Shown: positions 641-12,285 of the stretch, piece after piece
Numbering within the stretch: the first letter of the stretch is position 1
Layout of the letters: every line of letters begins with the position of its first letter
Virus genome (UHGV): UHGV-1325350
Reading direction: 5' to 3' (one strand)
Length of the DNA: 12,822 nucleotides
Source of the DNA: a virus
Position numbers and translations under genes: made by a program
Notes under the pieces: model-generated
Seen by the model: only the letters and a program-made list of their open reading frames with translations
What the model was told of the DNA's origin: nothing
Databases searched by the model: none

Positions 641-1030
641 TTAAATCACAGGTCTATAATCAAACTCCCCACTTCGGGCATCATTAATGACATGAGTGAT
701 CACACCAAACACAGCATTACTGCCCGTGCATCCATCGTCATCTACTGGTAACGCCTCTTTCTTCCCGGTGCTTAAATCCTCCAGGTGCTGGCGCGGATAC
801 TTCCTGTATCTCTTTATGCGATATTCACCCTCCATAGCGCATATAAGCAGTGAACCATCAACCGGAGTAAGTGAGGAATCAACCACCAGCAAAGCACCTT
901 GCAATATTCCCTCACGGTGATGGCTGTCTGCCGCCCGCATGAAGTAGGTCGCGGAAGGATGTCTGATTAGTTGCTGATCAAGAGAAATGCGGCTCTCTGC
1001 ATAATCCGCCGCAGGAGAAGGGAAGCCCAT
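641..1030 (-). CDS. umuD: UmuD'-like SOS mutagenesis protein (peptidase S24 fold), pre-processed form resembling phage P1 HumD
   Basis: 129 aa. Starts MGFPSPAADY, which corresponds to the first residues of cleaved UmuD' (UmuD cleaves at Cys24-Gly25 before GFPSPAADY). Retains the candidate Ser (AADSHH) and Lys (RIKRYRK) dyad positions and a C-terminal VFGVITHVI block matching UmuD VFGVVIHVV. ATG at 1028-1030 with GAGG Shine-Dalgarno. LexA box lies 19 bp upstream. Confidence 0.85.
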   Translation of the reverse strand: MGFPSPAADYAESRISLDQQLIRHPSATYFMRAADSHHREGILQGALLVVDSSLTPVDGSLLICAMEGEYRIKRYRKYPRQHLEDLSTGKKEALPVDDDGCTGSNAVFGVITHVINDARSGEFDYRPVI

Positions 1031-1048
1031 AGCGTTTTACCTCAATGA

Positions 1049-1068
1049 TACTGCTTATTCATACAGTA
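1049..1068. promoter_or_regulatory. LexA operator (SOS box) TACTGCTTATTCATACAGTA
   Basis: 20-bp site with the CTG-N10-CAG core and TACTG / CAGTA ends of the LexA consensus TACTGTATATATATACAGTA. Located immediately upstream of the UmuD'-like gene and overlapping its predicted -10. Confidence 0.8.
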
Positions 1069-1094
1069 TACATTGAAAAGGCATAGTTTGTGAA
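1065..1094 (-). promoter_or_regulatory. Predicted sigma70 promoter of the UmuD'-like gene (-35 TTCACA, 18-bp spacer, -10 TATACT on minus strand)
   Basis: Read on the minus strand: TTCACA (plus 1089-1094), 18 bp, TATACT (plus 1065-1070). The -10 overlaps the LexA box, as in classic SOS promoters. Confidence 0.5.
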
Positions 1095-1153
1095 AGCGGG
1101 GTTTGTAGGCGCGCCACGCTGGGGGCTAATCACATTTCTCCCCCATCTTGCCG

Positions 1154-1405
1154 TTATTTTTTTGGTGCATCCTCGTTCTGATACACCGGATCGCTCCCTT
1201 TTGGCAACTGGAGGCTTAACTGCCGGTAGTGCCGTAGCCGTTCCATGAAATAGGCGCGCAGATTCTCTGGTTGCTCGCGGGCTACCTGTTCAGCTATGAC
1301 AGGTATGTTCAATCGCTCTTTGTACGCCACACCGCTGGCAGCCAGATCAACGTTAACCTTATCCCGTTCTTCCTGACTTTTAGCTGCAATATTCCAGTCG
1401 CTCAT
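1154..1405 (-). CDS. Hypothetical small phage protein (83 aa)
   Basis: ATG start at 1403-1405, 2 nt after the stop of the upstream lipoprotein gene; TAA stop at 1154-1156. Hydrophilic and charged; no family recognised. Confidence 0.6.
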
Positions 1406-3650: not shown

Positions 3651-3924
3651 TGATATTAACCTTTATCGCAAATACCTTAACCGGATTCTCTCCAAAGTGC
3701 GGATGTGTAATTGTCTTTATTTCATACCCTTCATACGGGACGTCTATTCTGCGACTGGAATCGTCGCGCTTCGGATATCCCTTTGTGATAATCAGTCGGT
3801 CATATTCCCGGAACATGATTCGCTTATTCCAGTAGCCATTACACAAGCGATACTCTTCCGTTTTCTCTCCGCGAATCATGGCATCGAAGTATTCACCTTT
3901 GACGGCAAGTTGCAGGTTAGCCAT
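3643..3924 (-). CDS. ASCH domain protein (PUA-like fold), 93 aa from ATG 3922-3924 (longest ORF extends to 3945)
   Basis: Contains the ASCH signature GxKxxExR (IRGEKTEEYR) near the N-terminus. Internal ATG has a GGAGGTGAGG Shine-Dalgarno and overlaps the upstream TAA by 1 nt (TAATG). Confidence 0.6.
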   Translation of the reverse strand: MANLQLAVKGEYFDAMIRGEKTEEYRLCNGYWNKRIMFREYDRLIITKGYPKRDDSSRRIDVPYEGYEIKTITHPHFGENPVKVFAIKVNING

Positions 3925-4184
3925 TACCTCACCTCCAGTCTCCATACCGCCTGACCAATCCGGCTGGCATGGGTATCTTTAGATACTGTTCCGTCTTTAG
4001 CCAGCTCCATAAGAATTTTGCGCAAATCTGCCGAGCGCCATTCTTCATCAGGAAATTCCTTCTCCATTGCCAACCGCAGATTCCAGGTTGCTATCGTGAA
4101 TGGATATTCCCCGCCGAGAGCTTTCTCTTGCAGGGCCGCACGGGAACGTATCACCTGCAAAACCTTCTCTTTTACATCCATCAT
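3924..4184 (-). CDS. Hypothetical phage protein (86 aa from ATG 4182-4184; longest ORF extends to 4256)
   Basis: AGGAGG Shine-Dalgarno 4 nt upstream of tandem ATG codons. The first ATG overlaps the TGA of the DUF551 gene (ATGA). Confidence 0.6.
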   Translation of the reverse strand: MMDVKEKVLQVIRSRAALQEKALGGEYPFTIATWNLRLAMEKEFPDEEWRSADLRKILMELAKDGTVSKDTHASRIGQAVWRLEVR

Positions 4185-4948
4185 TTTGCCTCCTGCGGCG
4201 GTTCTGGTAGCGGCATCCAGTGTGATGGTATCCACGACGCACCAGGTATTACCCACCCATCATTAGCGTCAGGATGCCCCGGGATGTAAGTCGCCCATTT
4301 CATTCGCCAGTCACCTTTCCTGTCAAACTCCCTGGCAACAAGAACGGCTGTTTTGGTATCCGGCATTCGCTCACTACAGCTTATCCAACTATCCGGAATT
4401 ACCGGATAGTTGCGCATTGCGACCTTTAATGCCTCATAGAAGCAACCTTTCAGATTGTTGAACTGACGCCCATTTAGCGGGCCGTGTTCAGTCAGCATGT
4501 TGTGTAATTTCCATGCCGCGTCGTTTACTTCGTTGGATGACAGGGGAGGCAACTTGTAAGTTTGGCTTACAGGTTCGGCACCATGAAGCATGGCAGCACG
4601 GCAGGCGTTCCAGCCAGCTGTTCGCCCAAGCGAGTAAACTTCAGATGGCTCAAGATAATCAATGTCATGCCCGTCCTCATCGTCGTTCTCAGGTAATGCA
4701 GCAGGTACTACTGGTACTGGAGGGGCGGCATAAACAGGAATAACGTCCGCTTGCTCTTTATTGCTTTCATCCGTTAAAGCCCAGAATAATTTCCCGGCCG
4801 GATGTTTGAAAATATAAGCAACTGGATCTGCTTCCAGCGATGCCAGTGCAATTTCATAAGCACGGCGCTCAATATTGTCTCGAACGTCCAAGCTGCCTAT
4901 GCGCTCTTTGATTTCTTTAATCAGTTCTTTGTCGGTGAAAGTGGTCAT
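4181..4948 (-). CDS. DUF551 domain-containing phage protein (255 aa)
   Basis: C-terminal region WISCSERMPD...VLV...W...SHWMPLPEPP matches the remembered DUF551 signature (HWMPLPEPP-type ending). AGGAG Shine-Dalgarno at 7 nt. Pro/Ala-rich linker in the middle. Confidence 0.6.
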   Translation of the reverse strand: MTTFTDKELIKEIKERIGSLDVRDNIERRAYEIALASLEADPVAYIFKHPAGKLFWALTDESNKEQADVIPVYAAPPVPVVPAALPENDDEDGHDIDYLEPSEVYSLGRTAGWNACRAAMLHGAEPVSQTYKLPPLSSNEVNDAAWKLHNMLTEHGPLNGRQFNNLKGCFYEALKVAMRNYPVIPDSWISCSERMPDTKTAVLVAREFDRKGDWRMKWATYIPGHPDANDGWVIPGASWIPSHWMPLPEPPQEAK

Positions 4949-4949
4949 G

Positions 4950-5702
4950 TCACTCTCCTTTGATGCGAATGCCAGCGTCAGACATCATATGCAGATACTC
5001 AACTGCATCCTGAACCCATTGACCGCCAATCCCGTAATAGCGATGCGTAATGATGTCGATAGTTACTAACGGGTCTTGTTCGATTAACTTCCGCAGAAAC
5101 TCTTCCAGGTCACCAGTGCAGTGCTTGATGACAGGAGTTTTCCCAGGATGGCGAACAACAAGAAACTGATTTCCGACTTCACGGACTTCGTTGCTTTTCA
5201 GTTCTGCAATGCGCTTCTCTGAGGCTTCCAGCTTCTCTCGCATATCGTCAACGTACTCGACCAGAGAACCGCCAGCAGGAATTTCGCACTCCTCGACCAG
5301 TTGGAAGTAGATATCAGCTGCGGCCCGTGTGTTGCTATGCCTAGCGTCGCCCATCTCACCTTCACGAAGAGCATCGCGTTCGGCGGTAAGATTGGCTATT
5401 TTGCTGTCTTTGCCTTCCAGCTCAACGCGCAGCCTCCCAACCGTAAGCGCAATATCCTCGTTCTCCTGGTCGCGGCGTTTGATGTATTGCAGGTTTCTTT
5501 CCCGTTCATCCAGCAGCGTCAGCACGGTTTCTGGTCCGGTCAGAAATTTGAAGGCGTTGAGCGCATCAATATCCACACCATAATCTTTAAGTTCCTGTTC
5601 ACTTAACAAATCATCATCAGCTGGCAACATTAACAGGCGTTCCATTGCTGGAATTGCACGTTCCGCCGCCTCACGCAGTGCCTGGTAATTAATTTTGCTC
5701 AC
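4950..5702 (-). CDS. Ead/Ea22-like coiled-coil protein, paralog A (250 aa, GTG start)
   Basis: GTG at 5700-5702 with GGAGG at 7 nt. Central heptad-like segments RLRVELEGKD and KRIAELKSNE shared with the paralogs at 8276-8986 and 9306-10007. A 17-nt stretch (5199-5215) is identical to 8636-8652. Confidence 0.6.
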   Translation of the reverse strand: MSKINYQALREAAERAIPAMERLLMLPADDDLLSEQELKDYGVDIDALNAFKFLTGPETVLTLLDERERNLQYIKRRDQENEDIALTVGRLRVELEGKDSKIANLTAERDALREGEMGDARHSNTRAAADIYFQLVEECEIPAGGSLVEYVDDMREKLEASEKRIAELKSNEVREVGNQFLVVRHPGKTPVIKHCTGDLEEFLRKLIEQDPLVTIDIITHRYYGIGGQWVQDAVEYLHMMSDAGIRIKGE

Positions 5703-5988
5703 TGGTTGCCTCCGCTTTCCACGTTTTCAGACTTTCACCACAGAACGGGCAAAATGAAACCCGAATCGGCGATTTAGAAAACTCGCCTGACCGAAGCATG
5801 ATCAGATCTTGTGAATGAATTAATTCATGGTTATAGATTTTGTATTTCAGCAGACCTTTTCGCGTCGTGTATTCAGCATCCTGCTCCAGAGATTGTGCCA
5901 GCGCCGCGCACGGTTCTATTTTTCTGTCATTAATCAAACAAGTGGAGATTCTGCACTTTGCAGCTCCGTCACCGTTACCTTGACTCAT
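5689..5988 (-). CDS. Small putative zinc-ribbon protein (99 aa)
   Basis: Cys pairs C-x4-C (CRISTC) and C-x2-C (CPFCGE). ATG at 5986-5988. Confidence 0.5.
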   Translation of the reverse strand: MSQGNGDGAAKCRISTCLINDRKIEPCAALAQSLEQDAEYTTRKGLLKYKIYNHELIHSQDLIMLRSGEFSKSPIRVSFCPFCGESLKTWKAEATSEQN

Positions 5989-6001
5989 TGCGTTGTTTCC
6001 A

Positions 6002-6997
6002 TCAGTTATTGAACGTGATCACTCCGCGCTCAATGGCGAAGTCGAAAAGCTGGTTAGCGGCTACGTAAAGGCGGATGCCATGTGCTTTTTCCCATGCCCG
6101 GACATCGTTTTCTGCGCTTCTGGCGCAGTCATCGCAAAGAGGAACAGCCCAGCGGTCGTGTTCGTTTAACGAGCGGGCGCGGTACATGAATGGGTGGTTA
6201 ACTTTGCCACCGCATCCGATGCACGGACGAGAAACCACAAACCGGAGATAAGCCGGGCTTTTACCGAGGACCGCTTTTGGTCGGCGCATATAAAGCAGGC
6301 CGGAATCCTCATCTACAGACAGGTTGACGATCTGCTCTGCGGTTATGTCCACCAGCTCGCGGGTACTGTGCTCCCAGGTGATATCTGATTCTTTCAGCGT
6401 ACCGGTAGGGATTTCAGTTTTTGGCTGACAAAATGCAATGCGACCGGCTTCATCTGGCAGCTCATCTTTCAGATTCCGGCGAATGGCCCAAAAAGTGAGT
6501 TCAACCATGCTCAGATCGCGTTCTGGCGGTAGTTTTAACTCGCTCGCAGCCCAGTTCATAACCCAGTTGGCACGATTCAGGGATAACTGGTCGTCCAGCT
6601 TGCTGTACCCCTTCATCATGTATTCCGCATCATGCTTCCAGCACAGGCGAACGGCAGAGCCGTTATAGAAATGAGTGGTTAGCTGGTGGCTGCAATCGCG
6701 CTTATCGTGCGCCTGGCAATCGTGGATATTGGAACTTACCCAATGAACAAGCGAATCTTCACCGCCCAACGCGTTAAATACGCGCTCGCTTTGAAAAAAC
6801 GGTTTCAGAGACTGGTTGGCAACCAGCGAATAATTCAGATCCACTACGCCATCTGGCGTGTTTTCAGCCTGTTCACGCGGAAGTGGGGAGATAATGAAAC
6901 GGCGACCTACGCCAATGTAGTTACTGGTGGGCTTGTCTACCGGAAAGACAGCCACACCAGCTCCGTTTACGAAATGAGGTGTGATTATTGCACTCAT
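6002..6997 (-). CDS. DUF968-like phage protein with C-terminal Cys/His cluster (possible His-Me finger/HNH-like nuclease), 331 aa
   Basis: C-terminus PCIGCGG-x3-H...NEHD...VPLCDDC resembles the C-x2-C...H...H...LPLC pattern in the Ref-like protein at 11208-11786. A second Cys/His-rich patch lies near residues 90-130. Weak Shine-Dalgarno. Preceded by an operator-like palindrome. Confidence 0.55.
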   Translation of the reverse strand: MSAIITPHFVNGAGVAVFPVDKPTSNYIGVGRRFIISPLPREQAENTPDGVVDLNYSLVANQSLKPFFQSERVFNALGGEDSLVHWVSSNIHDCQAHDKRDCSHQLTTHFYNGSAVRLCWKHDAEYMMKGYSKLDDQLSLNRANWVMNWAASELKLPPERDLSMVELTFWAIRRNLKDELPDEAGRIAFCQPKTEIPTGTLKESDITWEHSTRELVDITAEQIVNLSVDEDSGLLYMRRPKAVLGKSPAYLRFVVSRPCIGCGGKVNHPFMYRARSLNEHDRWAVPLCDDCARSAENDVRAWEKAHGIRLYVAANQLFDFAIERGVITFNN

Positions 6998-7038
6998 AAT
7001 GTATACCGACTCTGTTTTGTTCCGAGCGGTAAAATAAT

Positions 7039-7069
7039 ATGTTAGAAAACTAAAATCAATGTTCTAACA
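7039..7069. promoter_or_regulatory. Operator-like palindrome TGTTAGAA-N14-TTCTAACA containing the recurring 11-mer ATGTTAGAAAA; possible internal promoter
   Basis: Perfect 8-bp inverted arms at 7040-7047 and 7062-7069 in the 97-bp gap between the phosphatase and DUF968 genes. On the minus strand TTGATT (plus 7054-7059) sits between the arms as a -35 candidate. The same 11-mer recurs at 11129-11139 and 11787-11797. Confidence 0.5.
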
Positions 7070-7094
7070 CATTATGAGTGCGTAAATGATTTGA

Positions 7095-7784
7095 TCAGAC
7101 TTTAAGCTGCCCTCCCTTCACCTGCATTAGCGTCAGATTTCCGCAAAAAACCGCGCCCGTGTCTATGTAGTGCTGATTCCAGTATGCTTTTGGTCTTCGT
7201 ACCGGTGTGTGCCCAAAGATAAAGCGATCTGCGCCTGTGATTTCTCCACCAATGCCATCTATCGAATCACTGATACGCTCGCGCGCCCAGACAACGTTGA
7301 AAAGCGGCACCTCCTTACCGAATTGATATTCATTATCCGGATAGTCGGCATGGGCTATAACGATAGTTTCTTGCCCGGTGTTCAACTCAATGATATAGGG
7401 CAGTCGTCTTACCAACTCCACCAGCGCCCTGGCTAATATTTCCTGATCAGCGTCCAGCATGAAGAACCATTGACCGCCATTCATTAGCCAGTTATTCACG
7501 TTGCCATCAGGACTTAACGCATCGAGCATCAACAGCTCATGGTTCCCCACTACTGCCCTGAACCAGGGCATCTGCAATAGCTCCAGGCATTCAACATTTT
7601 CGGCGCCGCGATCGATAAGGTCGCCAACCGATATCAGTAAATCCTGTGTCGGGTCAAAATCCACACGATGGAGTTCATTCATAAGTAGGGTGTAGCAACC
7701 GTGCAAATCACCAACAACCCATATGTTTCTGTAGCCTGAACCATCAATACGGCTATATAACGCCTGGTCGTTAACGGTGATCAT
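7095..7784 (-). CDS. Ser/Thr protein phosphatase, lambda PPase (NinI/PrpA)-like metallophosphatase (229 aa)
   Basis: PPP-family motifs GDLHG, GDLIDRG and GNHE in the expected order. Close resemblance throughout to lambda PPase as I recall it. ATG overlaps the upstream TGA (ATGA). Confidence 0.9.
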
Positions 7785-8008
7785 TCTGCAACATCCTCCA
7801 AATCAGCAACCGCGTCCATCACATCAGAACCGCGAATAACTTCAAAAGCGCGGCAGGCCATTTGAAATACCTGTTGTTCTTGCGGGTGCGGAGACTCCCA
7901 ATATTTGAAGCCTGGGCGATGCGTGTACCCCATCATGGAATAAAAATCGCCAGCAAGTTCAATCGCGGCATCAACAAGTTCGCGATTAGTCATTCGCTTT
8001 GCTGCCAT
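7781..8008 (-). CDS. Hypothetical small phage protein (75 aa)
   Basis: ATG at 8006-8008 preceded by AGGAG at 8 nt. Acidic C-terminus. Overlaps the upstream gene by 23 nt. Confidence 0.55.
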
Positions 8009-8279
8009 TTGCTTTCTCCTGTCGGAACATCACGATCATCAGGTCACCTTTTGTCGCTATCCTGGCTGTTGTGCCAGGCTCAATGCGGCTAAGTTCAAAT
8101 GCGTCATAGAACGCCTCTAACGCTTTCTGGCGTCTCTCCTGTTTGCGGCGCTTTCCCCACTGCATTAGAAAAACAGAGGCCGCCCACTTCCCCGCACTGA
8201 ACATGATGTAAAACCAACCGAGCAGGGCCAAACCTGTGTTGAGGGCCGTATCGAGCGTTATCGTGGTGTCGATATTCAC
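7986..8279 (-). CDS. Small membrane protein (97 aa, GTG start), one or two TM segments followed by a basic cytoplasmic region
   Basis: GTG at 8277-8279 overlaps the TGA of the upstream gene (GTGA) and is preceded by AGGGGG. Hydrophobic stretch TALNTGLALLGWFYIMFSAGKWAASVFLM followed by KRRKQERRQK. Confidence 0.55.
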   Translation of the reverse strand: MNIDTTITLDTALNTGLALLGWFYIMFSAGKWAASVFLMQWGKRRKQERRQKALEAFYDAFELSRIEPGTTARIATKGDLMIVMFRQEKANGSKAND

Positions 8280-8986
8280 TGATTGCCCCCTTCCCTAAGC
8301 TGTTCTGCACAATGCAGCAGCGCACCTGTCGCATCTTTAAGCGTCACTAGCTCGTCATCATCCAGTCCTACTCCCCTCGCGTCCCTGACAAACGCCGCGC
8401 AAAGGTCGTTAAACGCCCCCGCCCGCACTTCAGCCAGGAAAGCGCCAGTAGCAGGGGTGTCAATGCAAACACTGTCACGAAGGATGAAGAACGCATTAAG
8501 CATTCCTCTTTCTGGTACATCGTCCTGGCATTCCTCATATGCAACCAATGCATCCATCATTTTCTGACCGAATTGCTGAGGGTGTGCAGATTTCAGTGCT
8601 ATATTCTCCGCCGCCAGCGTCGCGCGATTGCTCTCCAGTTCTGCAATGCGCTGTTTTGCAGCATCAAGTTCAATCGATAATTTTTCCAACTGCTCTTTAT
8701 GCTTCTTGTATTCCTGATATGCGTGCCAGGACTGACCTTTGCGCACACTATCAGTAATATCAGTAATCTGTTCTGGTGTTAGCGTGGTCAGTGGCTGTGC
8801 TGGGAAAATCAGCACTTTCCCGGAATCCCAATCAAAACCAGCGTGAATTGACTGAACCTCAACTGAGGGTGTTGAACCAATGCTGCCAGGCGAATGAACA
8901 ACGATCGTTACATCCATATCGCGACGATGGCTGTGGTTGTTGGACAAAATACGATTCACCAACTCAGAAAATTTGGAAAATTTCAT
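8276..8986 (-). CDS. Ead/Ea22-like coiled-coil protein, paralog B (236 aa from ATG 8984-8986; ORF track GTG at 9037)
   Basis: The ATG overlaps the TGA of the ClpX-ZBD-like gene (ATGA) and is preceded by AGGGA. Central segment [18 protein letters not shown] shared with paralogs A and C. Confidence 0.6.
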
Positions 8987-9309
8987 GCTGATTCCCTTTG
9001 CTCTTCCTGGATAATGTTGTTGCAATCTTTCACGCACTCGTCGCAGATGAAAACGTTGTCCCCGGCAATTAACTTTTTAACGGTGTGCTGGGATTTGTTG
9101 CAGAAGCTGCAATAAAGCGTTGGACTGGCTGATACGGATGGTGCGCCAGATGTCAGCCGCGCGATGTCGTTCTTGCGACGCAATATCACACGGCTGCACT
9201 CGACCAGCATCTCCGGGGATATCTCCTCCTCCGTAGCGAGCGTCTCTAATCGTTCGAGTATGTGGAAGGCTTTTTCCTGGGTAATTGCAGAATGAGATGT
9301 GGTCATCAT
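8983..9309 (-). CDS. Free-standing ClpX-type C4 zinc-binding domain protein (ClpX N-domain mimic), 108 aa
   Basis: C-terminal [39 protein letters not shown] aligns nearly residue-for-residue with the E. coli ClpX N-terminal zinc-binding domain ([39 protein letters not shown]), including all four Cys. No AAA+ module follows. ATG overlaps the upstream TGA; AGGGG Shine-Dalgarno. Confidence 0.85.
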
Positions 9310-10007
9310 CTTTCCCCTTCAAAGTTCGGGCGCAGGCAGGATTGTCCTTTACGAAGCAGGGCTGCGAACCTGTCGGCCGCATCCGCGCAAGCAGAAGCAA
9401 CGGAATCAAAAAATGGATCATCTCCGGTATCGCGCATCGTCAAAGCGAATGCCTCCAATCCCTTAGCCTGTATTTCTACAAGATAAGCCTCAGATATAGT
9501 GCTTTTCGCTTCACCTAACTCGTTATGAGCTATGTTCGCTACGCATGCGATGTCTATATCTGGATGATTAATTGGGAGATGGCTAAGAATTGCCTCAAGT
9601 GCTGCTTTTTTGTTTTGGCATTCCGCCACCAGCGCCCCGCTATTGCTTTCCAGCTCTGCAATACACTTTTTAGCGGCCTCCAGCTCAACACGCAGCTTCT
9701 CAAGCGTTAGGGCCATCTCCACGTTCTCGTCCAGAAGTTCAATCACATCAGGATCGCTACCATCAACTACTGATATGCGCGAATTTTTGTAATGCTCGTC
9801 AGCATAAGTTCGTCCAGTTTTGAAGCATCCGTCATCCTCCATGCCGGAACAGGCATAAACAACATGTGATCCAGATATGCGCTGCATTGACATTTCCTCG
9901 CCACAAACAGGGCATTTAGGCGCTGGTTTCGGTGAATAACGTTCACGTAACGGATAGTAAAGCTCGATCTCCGCCAGTTGCTCTGGCGTTAAACCTTCAG
10001 ACTTCAT
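9306..10007 (-). CDS. Ead/Ea22-like coiled-coil protein, paralog C, with N-terminal Cys-rich zinc-ribbon-like segment (233 aa)
   Basis: ATG at 10005-10007 with AAGGAG at 5 nt. CPVCGEE...CSGMEDDGC near the N-terminus. Central [18 protein letters not shown] shared with paralogs A and B. Confidence 0.65.
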
Positions 10008-10314
10008 GTACTCTCCTTTCGAAATAAACGTACTGATTAATCATGCCCAGGGGCATTTCGAGTTTTTCCGCGATCTCACGGCGGGGAACACCACACTGAT
10101 GAAGCTGCCGTGCCAGTTCTATATCGCTCTGCCGGTATTTGGCTGACGGATGAAAGTCTCCTTTCAGAATCATGCTGATCCCCAGCTCCCGCGCTTTAGT
10201 CCTGACGGCATCACCGGTACGACCGATCAGCTTCCCAATACTCTCTACCGTCATAGTTCCGGCGCACTGGCGGAGTATCATGATTTCTGCCCTTCCCCAT
10301 CCCCGCCAGCTCAC
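9997..10314 (-). CDS. Small DNA-binding protein with two helix-turn-helix-like segments (105 aa with GTG start; 94 aa if internal ATG)
   Basis: Segments MTVESIGKLIGRTGDAVRTKARELGIS and SDIELARQLHQCGVPRREIAEKLEMP each look like an HTH (resolvase/sigma region 4 style). GTG at 10312-10314 overlaps the TGA of the DUF4406 gene (GTGA). Confidence 0.55.
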   Translation of the reverse strand: MSWRGWGRAEIMILRQCAGTMTVESIGKLIGRTGDAVRTKARELGISMILKGDFHPSAKYRQSDIELARQLHQCGVPRREIAEKLEMPLGMINQYVYFERRVHEV

Positions 10315-10934
10315 GCCGACATCCTCCGAGACATAAACTCCACAAAACGAACTGCATCTTCAGAAACAACACCGCATGACTTCAGATAATTCATTGCGTC
10401 ATTAGGTAGCGGATTAGTTGGTTCGGCATTTGCCAGGGATTGAGATAAACGCGTGATTAATTTGACCATTCTCCGCTGTCGGAGGTTGTATCCTTCGGCT
10501 AAAGACAGGTAACTGGAAAGGGTATTGCTTAAGCGAGCGCGAAGCTGATCCGTGCCGTGACATTCAATAGCAACATCACGCAACGCATCGACCAGTTCGC
10601 GGTAAATATGCGCTGCCATTCTGCAATCTGTGTCAGATGGCGCTTCATAAATTACCGTCAGCTCCAGTTTTTCAGCCAGGGCGTGTTCTGCTCGTGCTCC
10701 TGCGGACGCTTCCCAGCCCTTAAGCAGATAGATAGCATCAGCAGAACGCACCATTGCCAGGCAAATATCCATGTATTCACTCTGACAAAGTCCACCAGGT
10801 AACACCGCTGGATTCAGAACGATATGCCCTTCAGCCGTCAGCTCACTCGCCTTCGCATTAAACGCCGCGCGGTTGTAATCTGGATAACCAGTCATCGGAC
10901 CCGCGATGTAAATTTTCAAAACACGTTTCACCAT
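10311..10934 (-). CDS. DUF4406 (nucleoside 2-deoxyribosyltransferase-like fold) protein with about 110-aa C-terminal extension (207 aa from ATG 10932-10934; ORF track TTG at 10961)
   Basis: N-terminal KIYIAGPMTGYPDYNRAAFNAKASELTAEGHIVLNP matches the YI(A/S)GPMTG...N...AF signature remembered for DUF4406/NDT-like proteins. The ATG overlaps the stop of the upstream 51-aa ORF (TGATG); GGGGAA Shine-Dalgarno. Confidence 0.6.
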   Translation of the reverse strand: MVKRVLKIYIAGPMTGYPDYNRAAFNAKASELTAEGHIVLNPAVLPGGLCQSEYMDICLAMVRSADAIYLLKGWEASAGARAEHALAEKLELTVIYEAPSDTDCRMAAHIYRELVDALRDVAIECHGTDQLRARLSNTLSSYLSLAEGYNLRQRRMVKLITRLSQSLANAEPTNPLPNDAMNYLKSCGVVSEDAVRFVEFMSRRMSA

Positions 10935-11089
10935 CAAAATTTCCCCAGCATCGTGACGCAAAACATAAGCACTGCAAAAAGCTCAATACCAAGCTCAAGT
11001 AGCGCCAACGCGCCGAAAAACAGCACATAAAACAGGCCGATCTCATTCACAGGTGGCTGGTGGATCGCACTTAAGGCTATAAGCATCAT
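10934..11089 (-). CDS. Small hydrophobic membrane protein, 51 aa; first gene of the leftward operon (not in ORF track)
   Basis: My translation: MMLIALSAIHQPPVNEIGLFYVLFFGALALLELGIELFAVLMFCVTMLGKF. GGAGGA Shine-Dalgarno just upstream of tandem ATG (11084-11089). TGA overlaps the ATG of the DUF4406 gene. Confidence 0.4.
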   Translation of the reverse strand: MMLIALSAIHQPPVNEIGLFYVLFFGALALLELGIELFAVLMFCVTMLGKF

Positions 11090-11115
11090 GTCCTCCAAAC
11101 AGTAAACAGCGACTG

Positions 11116-11143
11116 ATATTAATGTTTTATGTTAGAAAATCAA
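11116..11143 (-). promoter_or_regulatory. Predicted sigma70 promoter of the leftward operon (-35 TTGATT, 16-bp spacer, -10 TAATAT on minus strand)
   Basis: Minus-strand sequence TTGATT-TTCTAACATAAAACAT-TAATAT. The operator half-site TTCTAACAT lies in the spacer. About 25 nt upstream of the GGAGGA Shine-Dalgarno of the first ORF. Confidence 0.55.
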
Positions 11144-11159
11144 TTTTGAATATCTAACA
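11130..11159. promoter_or_regulatory. Operator-like palindrome TGTTAGA-N16-TCTAACA in the divergent control region
   Basis: Inverted 7-bp arms at 11130-11136 and 11153-11159. Contains the 11-mer ATGTTAGAAAA (11129-11139) also found at 7039-7049 and, in opposite orientation, at 11787-11797. Lies between the leftward operon and the rightward Ref-like gene. Confidence 0.55.
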
Positions 11160-11207
11160 AATATGATCAATCATAAAAAAATCGCTGATAAGTAAGAGGC
11201 AGCCAAC

Positions 11208-11786
11208 ATGCAGAGACAGAGTTATTGGGAGAAACAGAGACAAAAAGCCATGCAAAAACTGGCTGATCCGGAATGGCGGGAAGAGCAAAGGGCAAAACGT
11301 CTTCAGCAGGCTCAACGCCAGCAGCAACGCGCAAGGGAAAAAGCCGCATCGCCTGAATATCGTCAAAAGAAACTTGAAAAAGTGAGGCAAAATGAACAGC
11401 GCAGAAGAGAGAGGGCGGCGTCAGCCCTCCCCAAAAAAACGCGCCCGTCACGCGGATTAAAAGGGAGATCACTCACAGCAGAAGAGCGCCGGATACAGGA
11501 CGCTATAGGCAAACTCCCCTGTATTGCCTGCCATCTTCACGGGAAGCATAGCCCTGTCGTATCTCTCCACCACATATTTGGCAGAACGGCTAAAGATGCC
11601 CATAAATACGTTCTCCCTTTGTGTAAATGGCACCACCAGCACGCAGCGCCAGCAGAGATCCGCGAACAATATCCCTGGTTGGTTCCTGTTCATGCTGATG
11701 GAAAAATAGGCGGGAAAGCAGATTTTATACGGCACAATGCCGAAGAGATGACGCTCTATCAGACGGTGCAAGAAATGGTGAATTAA
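11208..11786 (+). CDS. ref: Ref-like recombination enhancement function protein: HNH-type nuclease with basic low-complexity N-terminal half (phage P1 Ref-like), 192 aa
   Basis: N-terminal about 95 residues are K/R/Q/E-rich and look disordered. C-terminal half carries a His-Me finger/HNH-like motif (CIACHLHGKH...SLHHIFGR...LPLCKWHHQH). AAGAGG Shine-Dalgarno 8 nt upstream of the ATG. Architecture matches what is known for P1 Ref. Confidence 0.6.
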   Translation: MQRQSYWEKQRQKAMQKLADPEWREEQRAKRLQQAQRQQQRAREKAASPEYRQKKLEKVRQNEQRRRERAASALPKKTRPSRGLKGRSLTAEERRIQDAIGKLPCIACHLHGKHSPVVSLHHIFGRTAKDAHKYVLPLCKWHHQHAAPAEIREQYPWLVPVHADGKIGGKADFIRHNAEEMTLYQTVQEMVN

Positions 11787-11805
11787 TTTTCTAACATTTT
11801 ATGTT
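11787..11805. promoter_or_regulatory. Third copy of the operator 11-mer (TTTTCTAACAT) with small palindrome AACAT-TTT-ATGTT, immediately after the ref stop
   Basis: Exact 11-mer at 11787-11797 in forward orientation. A possible rightward promoter follows (TTGAGT 11804-11809, 17 bp, TACATT 11827-11832). Confidence 0.4.
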
Positions 11806-11910
11806 GAGTTTGAAATTTACTGATTGTACATTTTGATTAGATTGGTTCACCGCTCGACGCAACGAGACAAATCCTCAAGGATTTCGTATGATTGCCAATG
11901 TCATAGTTAT

Positions 11911-11977
11911 GGCAGCGCAATACAGGTGGCTAAAAGCCCCCGTTGACTCACGGTGTTCCAACCTGTATTGCGCCGCC
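11911..11977. repeat. Long inverted repeat (13-bp perfect arms GCGCAATACAGGT / ACCTGTATTGCGC, extendable to about 19 bp with 2 mismatches, 33-bp spacer)
   Basis: Arms at 11915-11927 and 11961-11973. No U-run follows, so it is not a typical intrinsic terminator. Lies in a 330-bp region without a confident gene. Confidence 0.6.
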
Positions 11978-12117
11978 ACCAGACCGTGGAACAGTCTGTG
12001 ACGGCTTCGAAAGCAAGGAGTCACTATGAACAATTACAAACTTTTCCCATCACTCACCGTCTACTCACGCAATAACCTGCGTTCTTTGCTCCCATCAAAA
12101 CTGGAGGGAGTATCAAA

Positions 12118-12285
12118 ATGACCGTTCGCTACCTGAATTATCAAATCCAGAACATCACTGGCGGTTGCTATGACTGGTTTGTCACTCTCGGAAAAGAAGT
12201 GATTACAGGGAAACTGGATGAAGTGAAAGCTAAGGCGTTGGCTTATGCCTGTAAACAATCCATGAAAATGAAAAGAAAAAAATAA
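12118..12285 (+). CDS. Hypothetical small protein, 55 aa, with basic C-terminal tail (not in ORF track)
   Basis: ATG at 12118-12120 preceded by GGAGGGAG at about 8 nt. My translation: MTVRYLNYQIQNITGGCYDWFVTLGKEVITGKLDEVKAKALAYACKQSMKMKRKK. TAA stop at 12283-12285, followed by a hairpin. Confidence 0.5.
   Translation: MTVRYLNYQIQNITGGCYDWFVTLGKEVITGKLDEVKAKALAYACKQSMKMKRKK

Follow-up and report, generated by a model that had tools for sequence, protein, structure and literature searches.

Three Ead/Ea22-like genes in the window

A 12,822-nucleotide (nt) stretch of viral DNA from the UHGV virus genome UHGV-1325350 (hereafter the window, meaning the whole stretch at its full length) carries three genes, A, B and C, which the initial annotation had described as paralogous Ead/Ea22-like coiled-coil (CC) genes, linked by shared DNA blocks that would serve for shuffling and deletion. 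The open reading frames (ORFs) are present as had been described, all on the minus strand, and their modules are as follows:

4950-5702, minus strand: gene A, a long-form Ea22 of 250 amino acids (aa), in which a 63-codon middle segment separates coil motifs 1 and 2, flanked by an N-region and by a lambda-type C-terminal domain that ends in IKGE
4953-5194, minus strand: C-terminal domain of A (residues 170-250), of lambda Ea22 type by phmmer against PDB 8DSX
8276-8986, minus strand: gene B, 236 aa, with a beta-rich N-domain (phrog_6026), a single coil and a helical C-terminal domain ending QLREGGNQ
9306-10007, minus strand: gene C, 233 aa, with an N-region bearing a CxxC...C zinc-ribbon-like insert, a single coil and a helical C-terminal domain homologous to that of B

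The GTG start of A agrees with the N-terminus of lambda Ea22, and the ATG start of B at 8986 agrees with 236-aa proteins in the databases.

The Pfam Ead_Ea22 profile (PF13935/IPR025153; gathering threshold 27 bits) recovered A (94.3 bits, 1.3e-26, residues 2-122) and C (41.6 bits, 2.3e-10, residues 20-122), and the N-regions of both fit this family. B did not match the profile at E<=0.01; its full-length database relatives, which are 64-77% identical to it, carry PF13935. Among the PHROG profiles, A matches phrog_250 end to end (6.9e-65), and phrog_368, a profile of 239 positions, is matched by B (residues 17-236 to positions 16-239, 1.3e-51), by C (residues 17-224 to positions 6-239, 5.6e-45) and by the N-half of A only (residues 1-114 to positions 1-124, 1.1e-38). 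B also matches phrog_6026 (1.7e-54), and phrog_492 and phrog_10746 are matched by both B and C over the coil and C-terminal domain.

The C-terminal domains divide the proteins differently. A phmmer search aligned residues 170-250 of A with the PDB entry 8DSX, 'Protein ea22' (E 4.1e-48, 77 of 81 residues identical, 95%); over the aligned columns A is 78% identical to lambda Ea22, and its terminal IKGE supplies the K/R-G-E tripeptide that has been reported at the C-terminus of all Ea22 proteins (PMC7093339). C ends in FEGER and B in EGGNQ, neither with this tripeptide, and sequence searches of the PDB gave no match for either protein, so that both are without a lambda-type C-terminal domain. The C-terminal domains of B and C are instead homologous to each other: with the coil cut away and disjoint sets of homologues, hhalign matched them at a probability of 97.1% (E 5.8e-11, 55 columns; motif ... 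FAxQLRKG), and BLASTP of C against the relatives of B covers residues 102-221 (E ~1e-10). Pairwise BLASTP among the three proteins aligns the coil alone, over 23-33 residues (A/C 3e-5; B/C 7e-8, 19/28 identical; A/B 4e-3).

What emerges is a chain of partial homology, in which the coil is common to all three proteins, while the homology of C with A extends to the N-region and that of C with B to the C-terminal domain. The proposal that the genes differ in both their N- and C-terminal domains therefore stands only in part, given the homologous C-terminal domains of B and C and the Ead_Ea22-type N-regions of A and C. The assignment to an Ea22-type family was borne out, directly by Pfam for A and C, and for B through phrog_368 and the PF13935 match of its relatives. 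By sequence, A is a true Ea22 in its long form, B is a family member despite failing the Pfam test itself, with a beta-rich N-domain that is not of Ea22 type, and the three genes are old paralogues within Ead/Ea22, a mosaic family of early accessory proteins encoded by temperate phages.

It might be argued that these similarities are merely the convergent likeness of low-complexity CCs, that the three genes are not paralogues and that their DNA matches are incidental, as the short and weak pairwise BLASTP alignments and the sub-threshold position of B in the Pfam search would allow. This is already contradicted by the evidence and is vanishingly improbable: A and C exceed the Pfam threshold, phrog_368 is matched from end to end by both B and C, the C-terminal domains of B and C are homologous in the absence of the coil, relatives of B at 64-77% identity carry PF13935, a 17-nt exact in-frame identity has no counterpart in 200 shuffles, and natural chimeras link all three genes (see below). 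Nor is the shared motif too short to speak for homology, or the flanking sequence unrelated to Ea22, as the profile matches extend outside the coil.

The coiled-coil stalk

The motif IAEL(E/K)SN, which had been noted at the end of a central heptad-like segment, is found in all three proteins (A 165-171, IAELKSN; B 114-120 and C 116-122, IAELESN). The element (L/I)ELxxxK that was said to precede it is exact in B only (IELDAAK); the corresponding residues are VELEAAK in C and KLEASEK in A. In a simple heptad scan the register is unbroken over residues ~87-134 of B and ~93-130 of C, and AlphaFold2 predicted a single long helix at 87-134 in B (predicted local distance difference test, pLDDT, 80-92) and at 86-143 in C (pLDDT 65-79). 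These models are confident only in the stalk and in part of the C-terminal domain of C. The segment is thus CC-like by both its heptad register and its predicted helices, and each protein is built around a central helical heptad stalk of ~30-50 residues that is flanked by exchangeable end-domains.

The stalks of B and C are 68% identical over 28 residues. A differs from both in carrying two coil motifs, LRVELEGKDSKIANL and REKLEASEKRIAELKSN, which lie 63 codons apart, where B and C have one. A 9-nt direct repeat, CTTCCAGCT, occurs within A at 5225-5233 and 5414-5422, a spacing of 189 nt that equals 63 codons or 9 heptads, and its two copies bracket the middle segment of A that is missing from B and C. 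In-silico removal of one such interval yields LRVELEASEKRIAELKSN, which is colinear with the single coils of B and C.

DNA blocks coding for the coil

The repeated DNA of the three genes falls within the coil-coding region:

5191-5251, minus strand: shared block D1 in A (coil motif 2, ...EKRIAELKSN), with the 17-nt match and the junction of chimera P0145
5414-5465, minus strand: shared block D3, which codes for coil motif 1 of A (...ALTVGRLRVELE), matches 9679-9728 of C at 82% identity and holds the junction of chimera P0138
5225-5422, minus strand: internal direct repeat CTTCCAGCT in A, bracketing the middle segment
8607-8673, minus strand: shared coil block of B, within which chimeras P0130 and P0150 and a 1015-bp deletion have their crossovers
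9622-9728, minus strand: coil block in C, with a D1-type part (9622-9688) and a D3-type part (9679-9728), contiguous

The identity that had been reported between 5199-5215 and 8636-8652 is exact over 17 nt; no other exact direct repeat in the window reaches even 14 nt, and a repeated 17-mer appeared in 0/200 shuffles of the window. The match of 5413-5433 with 9677-9696 is likewise real, and in register it grows to 5416-5465 against 9679-9728 (41/50, 82%). An unbiased repeat search, in which the window was compared with itself, ranked a three-copy 41-nt family (5191-5231, 8628-8668 and 9643-9683; 78%) first and this 50-nt pair second among the gene-to-gene direct-repeat families. The D1- and D3-type blocks, contiguous in C, lie 185 nt apart in A. 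In all, the coil-coding blocks measure 41-67 nt, are 78-82% identical and are in frame with one another.

Natural chimeras join modules within the blocks

To follow the modules in other genomes, 240 listed homologues of B and C were scored against the N-terminal, coil and C-terminal pieces of A, B and C. Alignment ends that are internal to both proteins cluster at the borders of the coil; in C, for example, 69 starts gather at residues 100-104 and 50 ends at residues 125-139. Four natural chimeras were found, their composition being read from three-way alignments:

P0130: C 1-122 (100%) followed by B 114-236 (100%), the joint lying in the shared IAELESN, which is counted in both ranges
P0150: N-domain of B with C-terminal domain of C, the reciprocal of P0130, joined likewise at IAELESN
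P0145: N-domain of C with the lambda-type C-terminal domain of A, joined at IAEL(E/K)SNE
P0138: N-region of A with coil and C-terminal domain of C, joined at LRVELE

At the DNA level the joint was taken as the overlap of the alignments to the two 'parents' in the window, and in all four chimeras this overlap is confined to the shared blocks: 8607-8673/9622-9688 in P0130 and P0150, 5191-5251/9643-9703 in P0145, and 5414-5465/9677-9728 in P0138. The junctions in the coil blocks keep the exact homologous register, with no insertions or deletions (indels), and so does that of the deletion described below. The initial annotation had envisaged a conserved stalk that carries variable heads, and had called for a search of relatives for recombinant junctions at the shared blocks; such junctions were found in these chimeras, in related plasmids and in the deletion contig.

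Related plasmids add further combinations. The N-domain and coil of B, at 99-100% identity, are joined to at least 4 different C-terminal domains, and homology to the window in these plasmids begins at 8585-8603. The core of A is joined to other N- and C-terminal ends, and in at least 10 plasmids homology to the window sets in no earlier than the edge of block D1, at 5192 or 5199, which indicates that the C-terminal domain of A has been swapped in them. The number of paralogues per operon ranges from 2 to 4 in related phage-plasmids.

The same modules recur in chromosomal lambdoid/P22-like prophages (loci L009 2691-3359, L010 5001-5573 and L012 5001-5633). Two chimeras at these loci lie in lambdoid early-left operons that also carry Kil and cIII, where they adjoin the genes for Erf and Abc2, and one lies directly downstream of a lambda-P-type replication gene. 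Judged from these sequences, modules are exchanged between prophage types and between different regions of the genome.

Exchange within the blocks is not the only route by which these operons vary. Gene C is absent from the plasmid pTB423 (window 9285-9969 against L001 11185-11207, with ~20 nt in its place), and the junctions of this loss, at ~9285 and ~9969, are near gene borders and involve no coil repeat. Phage D6 has a homologue of C (orf92, identified as such by DNA alignment) and is without B. Whole genes are therefore also gained and lost independently of the coil blocks.

A deletion that fuses C to B

The chimera P0130 is encoded on a 27-kb contig, L008, from the Logan short-read assembly of ERR1971803, which represents a D6-like phage-plasmid with the gene order Ref, DUF4406, DNA-binding gene, P0130, DUF4752, 75-aa ORF, phosphatase and DUF968. 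Window 6001-8673 aligns with L008 at 95% and window 9622-12258 at 90.6%, and the two alignments overlap by 67 nt in L008, which thus has the arrangement of the window minus 1015 bp, with C fused to B:

8633-9647, no strand: interval missing in L008, 1015 bp, with the crossover in the hexamer ATTGCT

In a three-way alignment of 161 nt around the junction, L008 follows B without a mismatch as far as 8632, and C from 9642 onward, which puts the crossover within the shared hexamer ATTGCT (8627-8632 = 9642-9647), at the codons for Ser-Asn in IAELESN. What L008 has lost is the C-terminal domain of C, an entire gene for a ClpX-type zinc-finger protein and the N-domain of B. The suggestion that the repeats are substrates for deletion between paralogues has thus found its product, in a single case; the deletion is rare.

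This fusion could in principle be an artefact of assembly or sequencing, in which case direct evidence for deletion between the paralogues would fall away; it comes from one Logan short-read contig of one sample, and neither the 5,426 complete E. coli genomes nor the 72,556 PLSDB plasmids searched contain its junction. We consider this quite unlikely, because the B and C blocks share no exact run that could collapse a de Bruijn graph, the longest being at most 8 nt in register at the junction and at most 10 nt anywhere in both blocks. Moreover, L008 runs for kilobases on either side with normal synteny, the fused ORF is intact, and the same blocks are used in three further independent chimeras, of which one comes from an NCBI genome assembly. 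The assessment is made at the level of the assembled contig.

Coil blocks as probable joints for module exchange

Taken together, these observations lead us to interpret A, B and C as three mosaic Ea22 paralogues whose coil-coding blocks are the joints for module exchange and for gene-fusing deletion, a reading to which we give a probability of roughly 0.8. The blocks would take this part because they are the only in-frame sequence common to otherwise unrelated modules. Crossovers in them would give in-register swaps that preserve the heptads, both between paralogues and between phages, and crossovers between tandem paralogues would give deletions that fuse two genes and remove the intervening DNA. 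The likely route is recombination by short or homeologous sequence, of the kind carried out by phage single-strand-annealing proteins, or replication slippage and template switching; the shortness of the exact identities makes a short-homology or homeologous route likelier than classical RecA/RecBCD exchange. The Erf and Abc2 genes beside two of the chimeras, and the Ref gene in the window, are suggestive only in this respect.

Several observations weigh against this interpretation. The longest exact identities between the blocks are short (17 nt for A/B, 11 nt for A/C and 10 nt for B/C), and with exact identity of only 6-17 nt homology-driven exchange would be inefficient. The synonymous sites of the B and C coils are near saturation, the same codon being used at 8/19 identical residues against an expectation of 0.36, which argues that the block is conserved by protein constraint and not by recent exchange. 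The C-B fusion was seen once, in the one short-read contig, and there were 0 records of its junction among the complete genomes and plasmids searched. The AlphaFold2 models are weak outside the helix (mean pLDDT 59 and 63). Finally, the end-domains of B and C, including the zinc-ribbon-like insert of C, could be assigned no function: besides the PDB searches, NCBIfam gave no family for A, B, C or two neighbours, PADLOC gave no match for A, B, C or seven neighbouring genes, and Foldseek of the C model against BFVD gave 0 matches at E<=0.001. The near-saturated synonymous sites also rule out recent gene conversion as the source of the similarity between the blocks.

The main rival explanation draws on the same facts. 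It holds that illegitimate joining takes place anywhere and that selection retains those in-frame products in which the stalk still works and the end-domains are whole, so that the coil block is a tolerated boundary and not a preferred substrate; random recombinants selected in this manner would also leave a mosaic boundary at a conserved block. The identities of 6-17 nt, the placement of the L008 crossover within just 6 nt of shared sequence, the block maintained by protein constraint, and the repeat-free junctions at gene borders in relatives, such as those of the loss of C from pTB423, are all in keeping with it. However, the four chimeras and the deletion are all in exact register, without indels, inside homeologous blocks of 50-67 nt. 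Random joining followed by selection should generate variation in the length of the stalk, yet register shifts are wholly absent. In addition, two of the chimeras have genes for annealing proteins of the Erf type as neighbours, and such proteins work on short, diverged homology. A scheme of illegitimate joining and subsequent selection fits poorly with the absence of register shifts and is, in our estimate, unlikely.

At the protein level, the three present different end-domains on one kind of stalk: in A, an Ea22-type N-region and a lambda-type, dimeric C-terminal domain; in C, an Ea22-type N-region with a zinc-ribbon-like insert and a helical '...FLAEVRAQG...QLRKG' C-terminal domain; and in B, an unrelated beta-rich N-domain with a C-terminal domain of the kind found in C. 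By analogy with Ea22 of lambda and P27, the stalk would oligomerize the protein, probably as tetramers that display several copies of the end-domains, and these could bind host or phage partners early after derepression and thereby bias the decision between lysis and lysogeny, or that of maintenance. A more far-reaching version, which we put forward tentatively and consider rather unlikely, would give the conserved stalk two jobs, as the interface of mixed tetramers in which co-expressed paralogues of one gene train form a combinatorial range of multi-headed adaptors, and as an in-frame DNA 'universal joint' maintained for the exchange of heads between lambdoid prophages and P1/D6-like phage-plasmids through annealing proteins or the neighbouring Ref nuclease.

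Genomic setting and neighbouring genes

The best nucleotide matches of the whole window are E. coli plasmids of ~90 kb, headed by pTB423 (96.3% identity, 86% coverage). Phage D6 covers 51% of the window at 91% identity, and P1, P7, SJ46 and RCS47 match it in patches. The annotation of these relatives puts hot/humD (641-1405, minus strand) on one side and ref (11208-11786, plus strand) on the other, with a variable leftward gene train in between. In the order of transcription it comprises genes for a DUF4406 protein, a small DNA-binding protein, gene C, the ClpX-type zinc-finger protein, gene B and a DUF4752 protein, followed by a 75-aa ORF, a Ppp phosphatase, a DUF968/HNH (pdcB-like) protein, a 99-aa ORF, gene A, a DUF551 protein, an ASCH protein and others. 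Gene order corresponds to the ref, ppp, pdcB, hot, humD order of D6 and P1. On the strength of this order and of the matches to plasmids and D6, the window is a segment of a D6/P1-like phage-plasmid and not of a lambdoid prophage. Despite this setting, window 3652-5713 is ~95% identical to the early-left regions of Shiga toxin (Stx) phages. The possibility that the train is a known anti-phage defence locus was rejected, as ten of its genes are without a PADLOC match.

The initial annotation had placed A, B and C in one operon. This is plausible but unproven. Overlaps of the ATGA type link C, the ClpX-type zinc-finger gene, B and the DUF4752 gene to one another. A lies downstream of a 97-nt gap (6998-7094) that holds an operator-like palindrome, and may thus belong to another transcription unit than B and C. 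The palindrome, imperfect in form (GTTAGAn - 12-14 nt - TTCTAAC), is present at three intergenic sites, namely upstream of the DUF968 gene (7038-7072), in the divergent region between ref and the DUF4406 gene (11128-11162) and directly past the ref stop codon (11765-11799), and the 11-mer TTTTCTAACAT is exact at all three. With one mismatch permitted, the pattern has 4 matches in the window, a number reached by 0/200 shuffles. The consensus of the P1 C1 operator, ATTGCTCTAATAAATTT, was not found at <=3 mismatches, and the palindrome may be a putative repressor site of D6 type.

The gene between C and B is a feature in its own right:

8983-9309, minus strand: ClpX-type C4 zinc-finger-only gene, 108 aa, between C and B (Pfam zf-C4_ClpX, 6e-18)

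Its start and stop overlap those of the flanking genes, it is translationally coupled between C and B, and its product has little beyond the C4 zinc finger. The homologue in phage D6 and some plasmids is labelled 'carboxylate--amine ligase', which looks like a mis-annotation. From its domain content, the product could be a mimic of the substrate- and adaptor-binding domain of ClpX, or a competitor with it.

The ref gene, divergent from the train, codes for a RecA-dependent nuclease of the Ref family with an N-terminus that is strongly rich in K, R, E and Q, and the AT skew reaches 0.42 at 11001-11500. P1 Ref stimulates recombination. A tie between the Ref of the window and module shuffling would be speculation, and is suggestive only.

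Two other repeats were noted. Between two small minus-strand ORFs, at 2692-2756, lie three head-to-tail 21-nt units, TATCCGTTAT-N-(G)GAATA, that are 74-78% alike and by their sequence look like iterons or putative protein-binding sites; Tandem Repeats Finder scored no repeat in the window, these units included. A near-palindromic sequence of 26-27 nt, AACTATCCGGAA...CCGGATAGTT, occurs at 1899-1925 and 4386-4413, inside two different genes, one of 258 aa (1720-2496) and the DUF551 gene that follows A (4181-4948). In the latter it encodes the ...NYPVIPDSW... linker immediately before the DUF551 domain. The two genes have the N-terminal matches phrog_60 and phrog_3323 in common, and the near-palindrome has the look of a further joint for shuffling, belonging to a second mosaic family.

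Significance and comparison with known systems

Ea22 proteins have been described as an N-region, a CC and a variable C-terminal domain; they are tetrameric, pro-lysogenic and 'mosaic', with up to three variants in a genome (PMC10834534, PMC7093339, PMC8614690). Those of lambda and P27 are tetramers with dimeric, acidic C-terminal domains, and ea22, one of the first genes to be transcribed, favours lysogeny (PMC10834534, PMC7093339, PMC8614690). The tetramer and the pro-lysogenic phenotype are known from experiments on lambda, phi24B and P27, and mosaic genes that combine a conserved coil with variable ends, in several variants to a genome, have been published for lambda and Stx phages (PMC10834534, PMC7093339). 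A search of the literature for a newer function of Ea22 returned none beyond the pro-lysogenic phenotype.

The general mosaic interpretation of Ea22 is hence already published, and the window adds detail to the picture of the family without changing it. New are the phage-plasmid setting with its 2-4 paralogues, the membership of B, the C-terminal domain common to B and C, the relation of long and short stalks through the 63-codon interval, and the joints at the nucleotide level, including a gene-fusing deletion. Ea22 is one of the last uncharacterized early genes of lambda and influences the induction of Stx prophages, and this modular family is here multiplied in the accessory operon of widespread P1/D6-like phage-plasmids of E. 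coli and Salmonella. Natural variants with swapped heads on a constant stalk should be useful for assigning functions to single domains, and the joints offer nucleotide-level examples of short, in-frame conserved blocks that guide the shuffling of domains and the fusion of genes among the accessory genes of phages.

Among the known systems, lambda Ea22 has the same three-part architecture as A, with an N-terminal helix, an LLDERERN...ENEDIALTVG(K/R)LRVELE coil and a 95% identical C-terminal domain ending in IKGE, and A is probably an early-expressed accessory gene too. Lambda Ea22 is shorter, with 182 aa against the 250 of A, which has ~20 additional aa in the N-region and ~48 between the coil motifs. 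Their locations also differ: lambda ea22 is in the exo-xis region and transcribed from pL, whereas A lies beside DUF551 and DUF968 genes in a P1/D6-like phage-plasmid. The C-terminal domain of lambda Ea22 (8DSX) is a mixed alpha/beta dimer. In the window this type of domain (4950-5194) is carried on a phage-plasmid and joined to a long stalk of the Stx/P22 type, a combination that differs from that of lambda; the structure paper had none of the lambda type among its 37 genomes of Stx phages and enterohaemorrhagic E. coli (EHEC).

The long, two-motif form of A is shared with EaD of the Salmonella phage P22, the source of the Pfam family name, which has a long coil (... ALRQRIQELEA) with two motifs ~60 residues apart and a C-terminal KGE. 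The two are only 35% identical in the aligned columns and have different C-terminal domains. The published mosaic Ea22 variants resemble the genes of the window in combining a common N-region and coil (IPR025153/Ead_Ea22) with unrelated C-terminal domains, in occurring two or three to a genome and in using DUF551 as a portable C-terminal domain, and related module chimeras do occur in lambdoid early-left operons. The window differs in that B and C carry a C-terminal domain of the '...QLRKGGNQ' type and B a non-Ea22 N-domain, and the mapping of junctions at the nucleotide level, together with the deletion between paralogues, is found here and not in the paper on those variants.

A broader parallel lies in the 'linker' idea of modular phage evolution and in recombination at conserved motifs of tail-fibre and adhesin genes, reportedly described by Susskind and Botstein in 1978 and by Tetart et al. 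in 1998. There, as in the window, short conserved in-frame islands between variable modules are the crossover points of domain swapping. Those cases concern determinants of host range, whereas here the joint is the CC stalk of early accessory genes.

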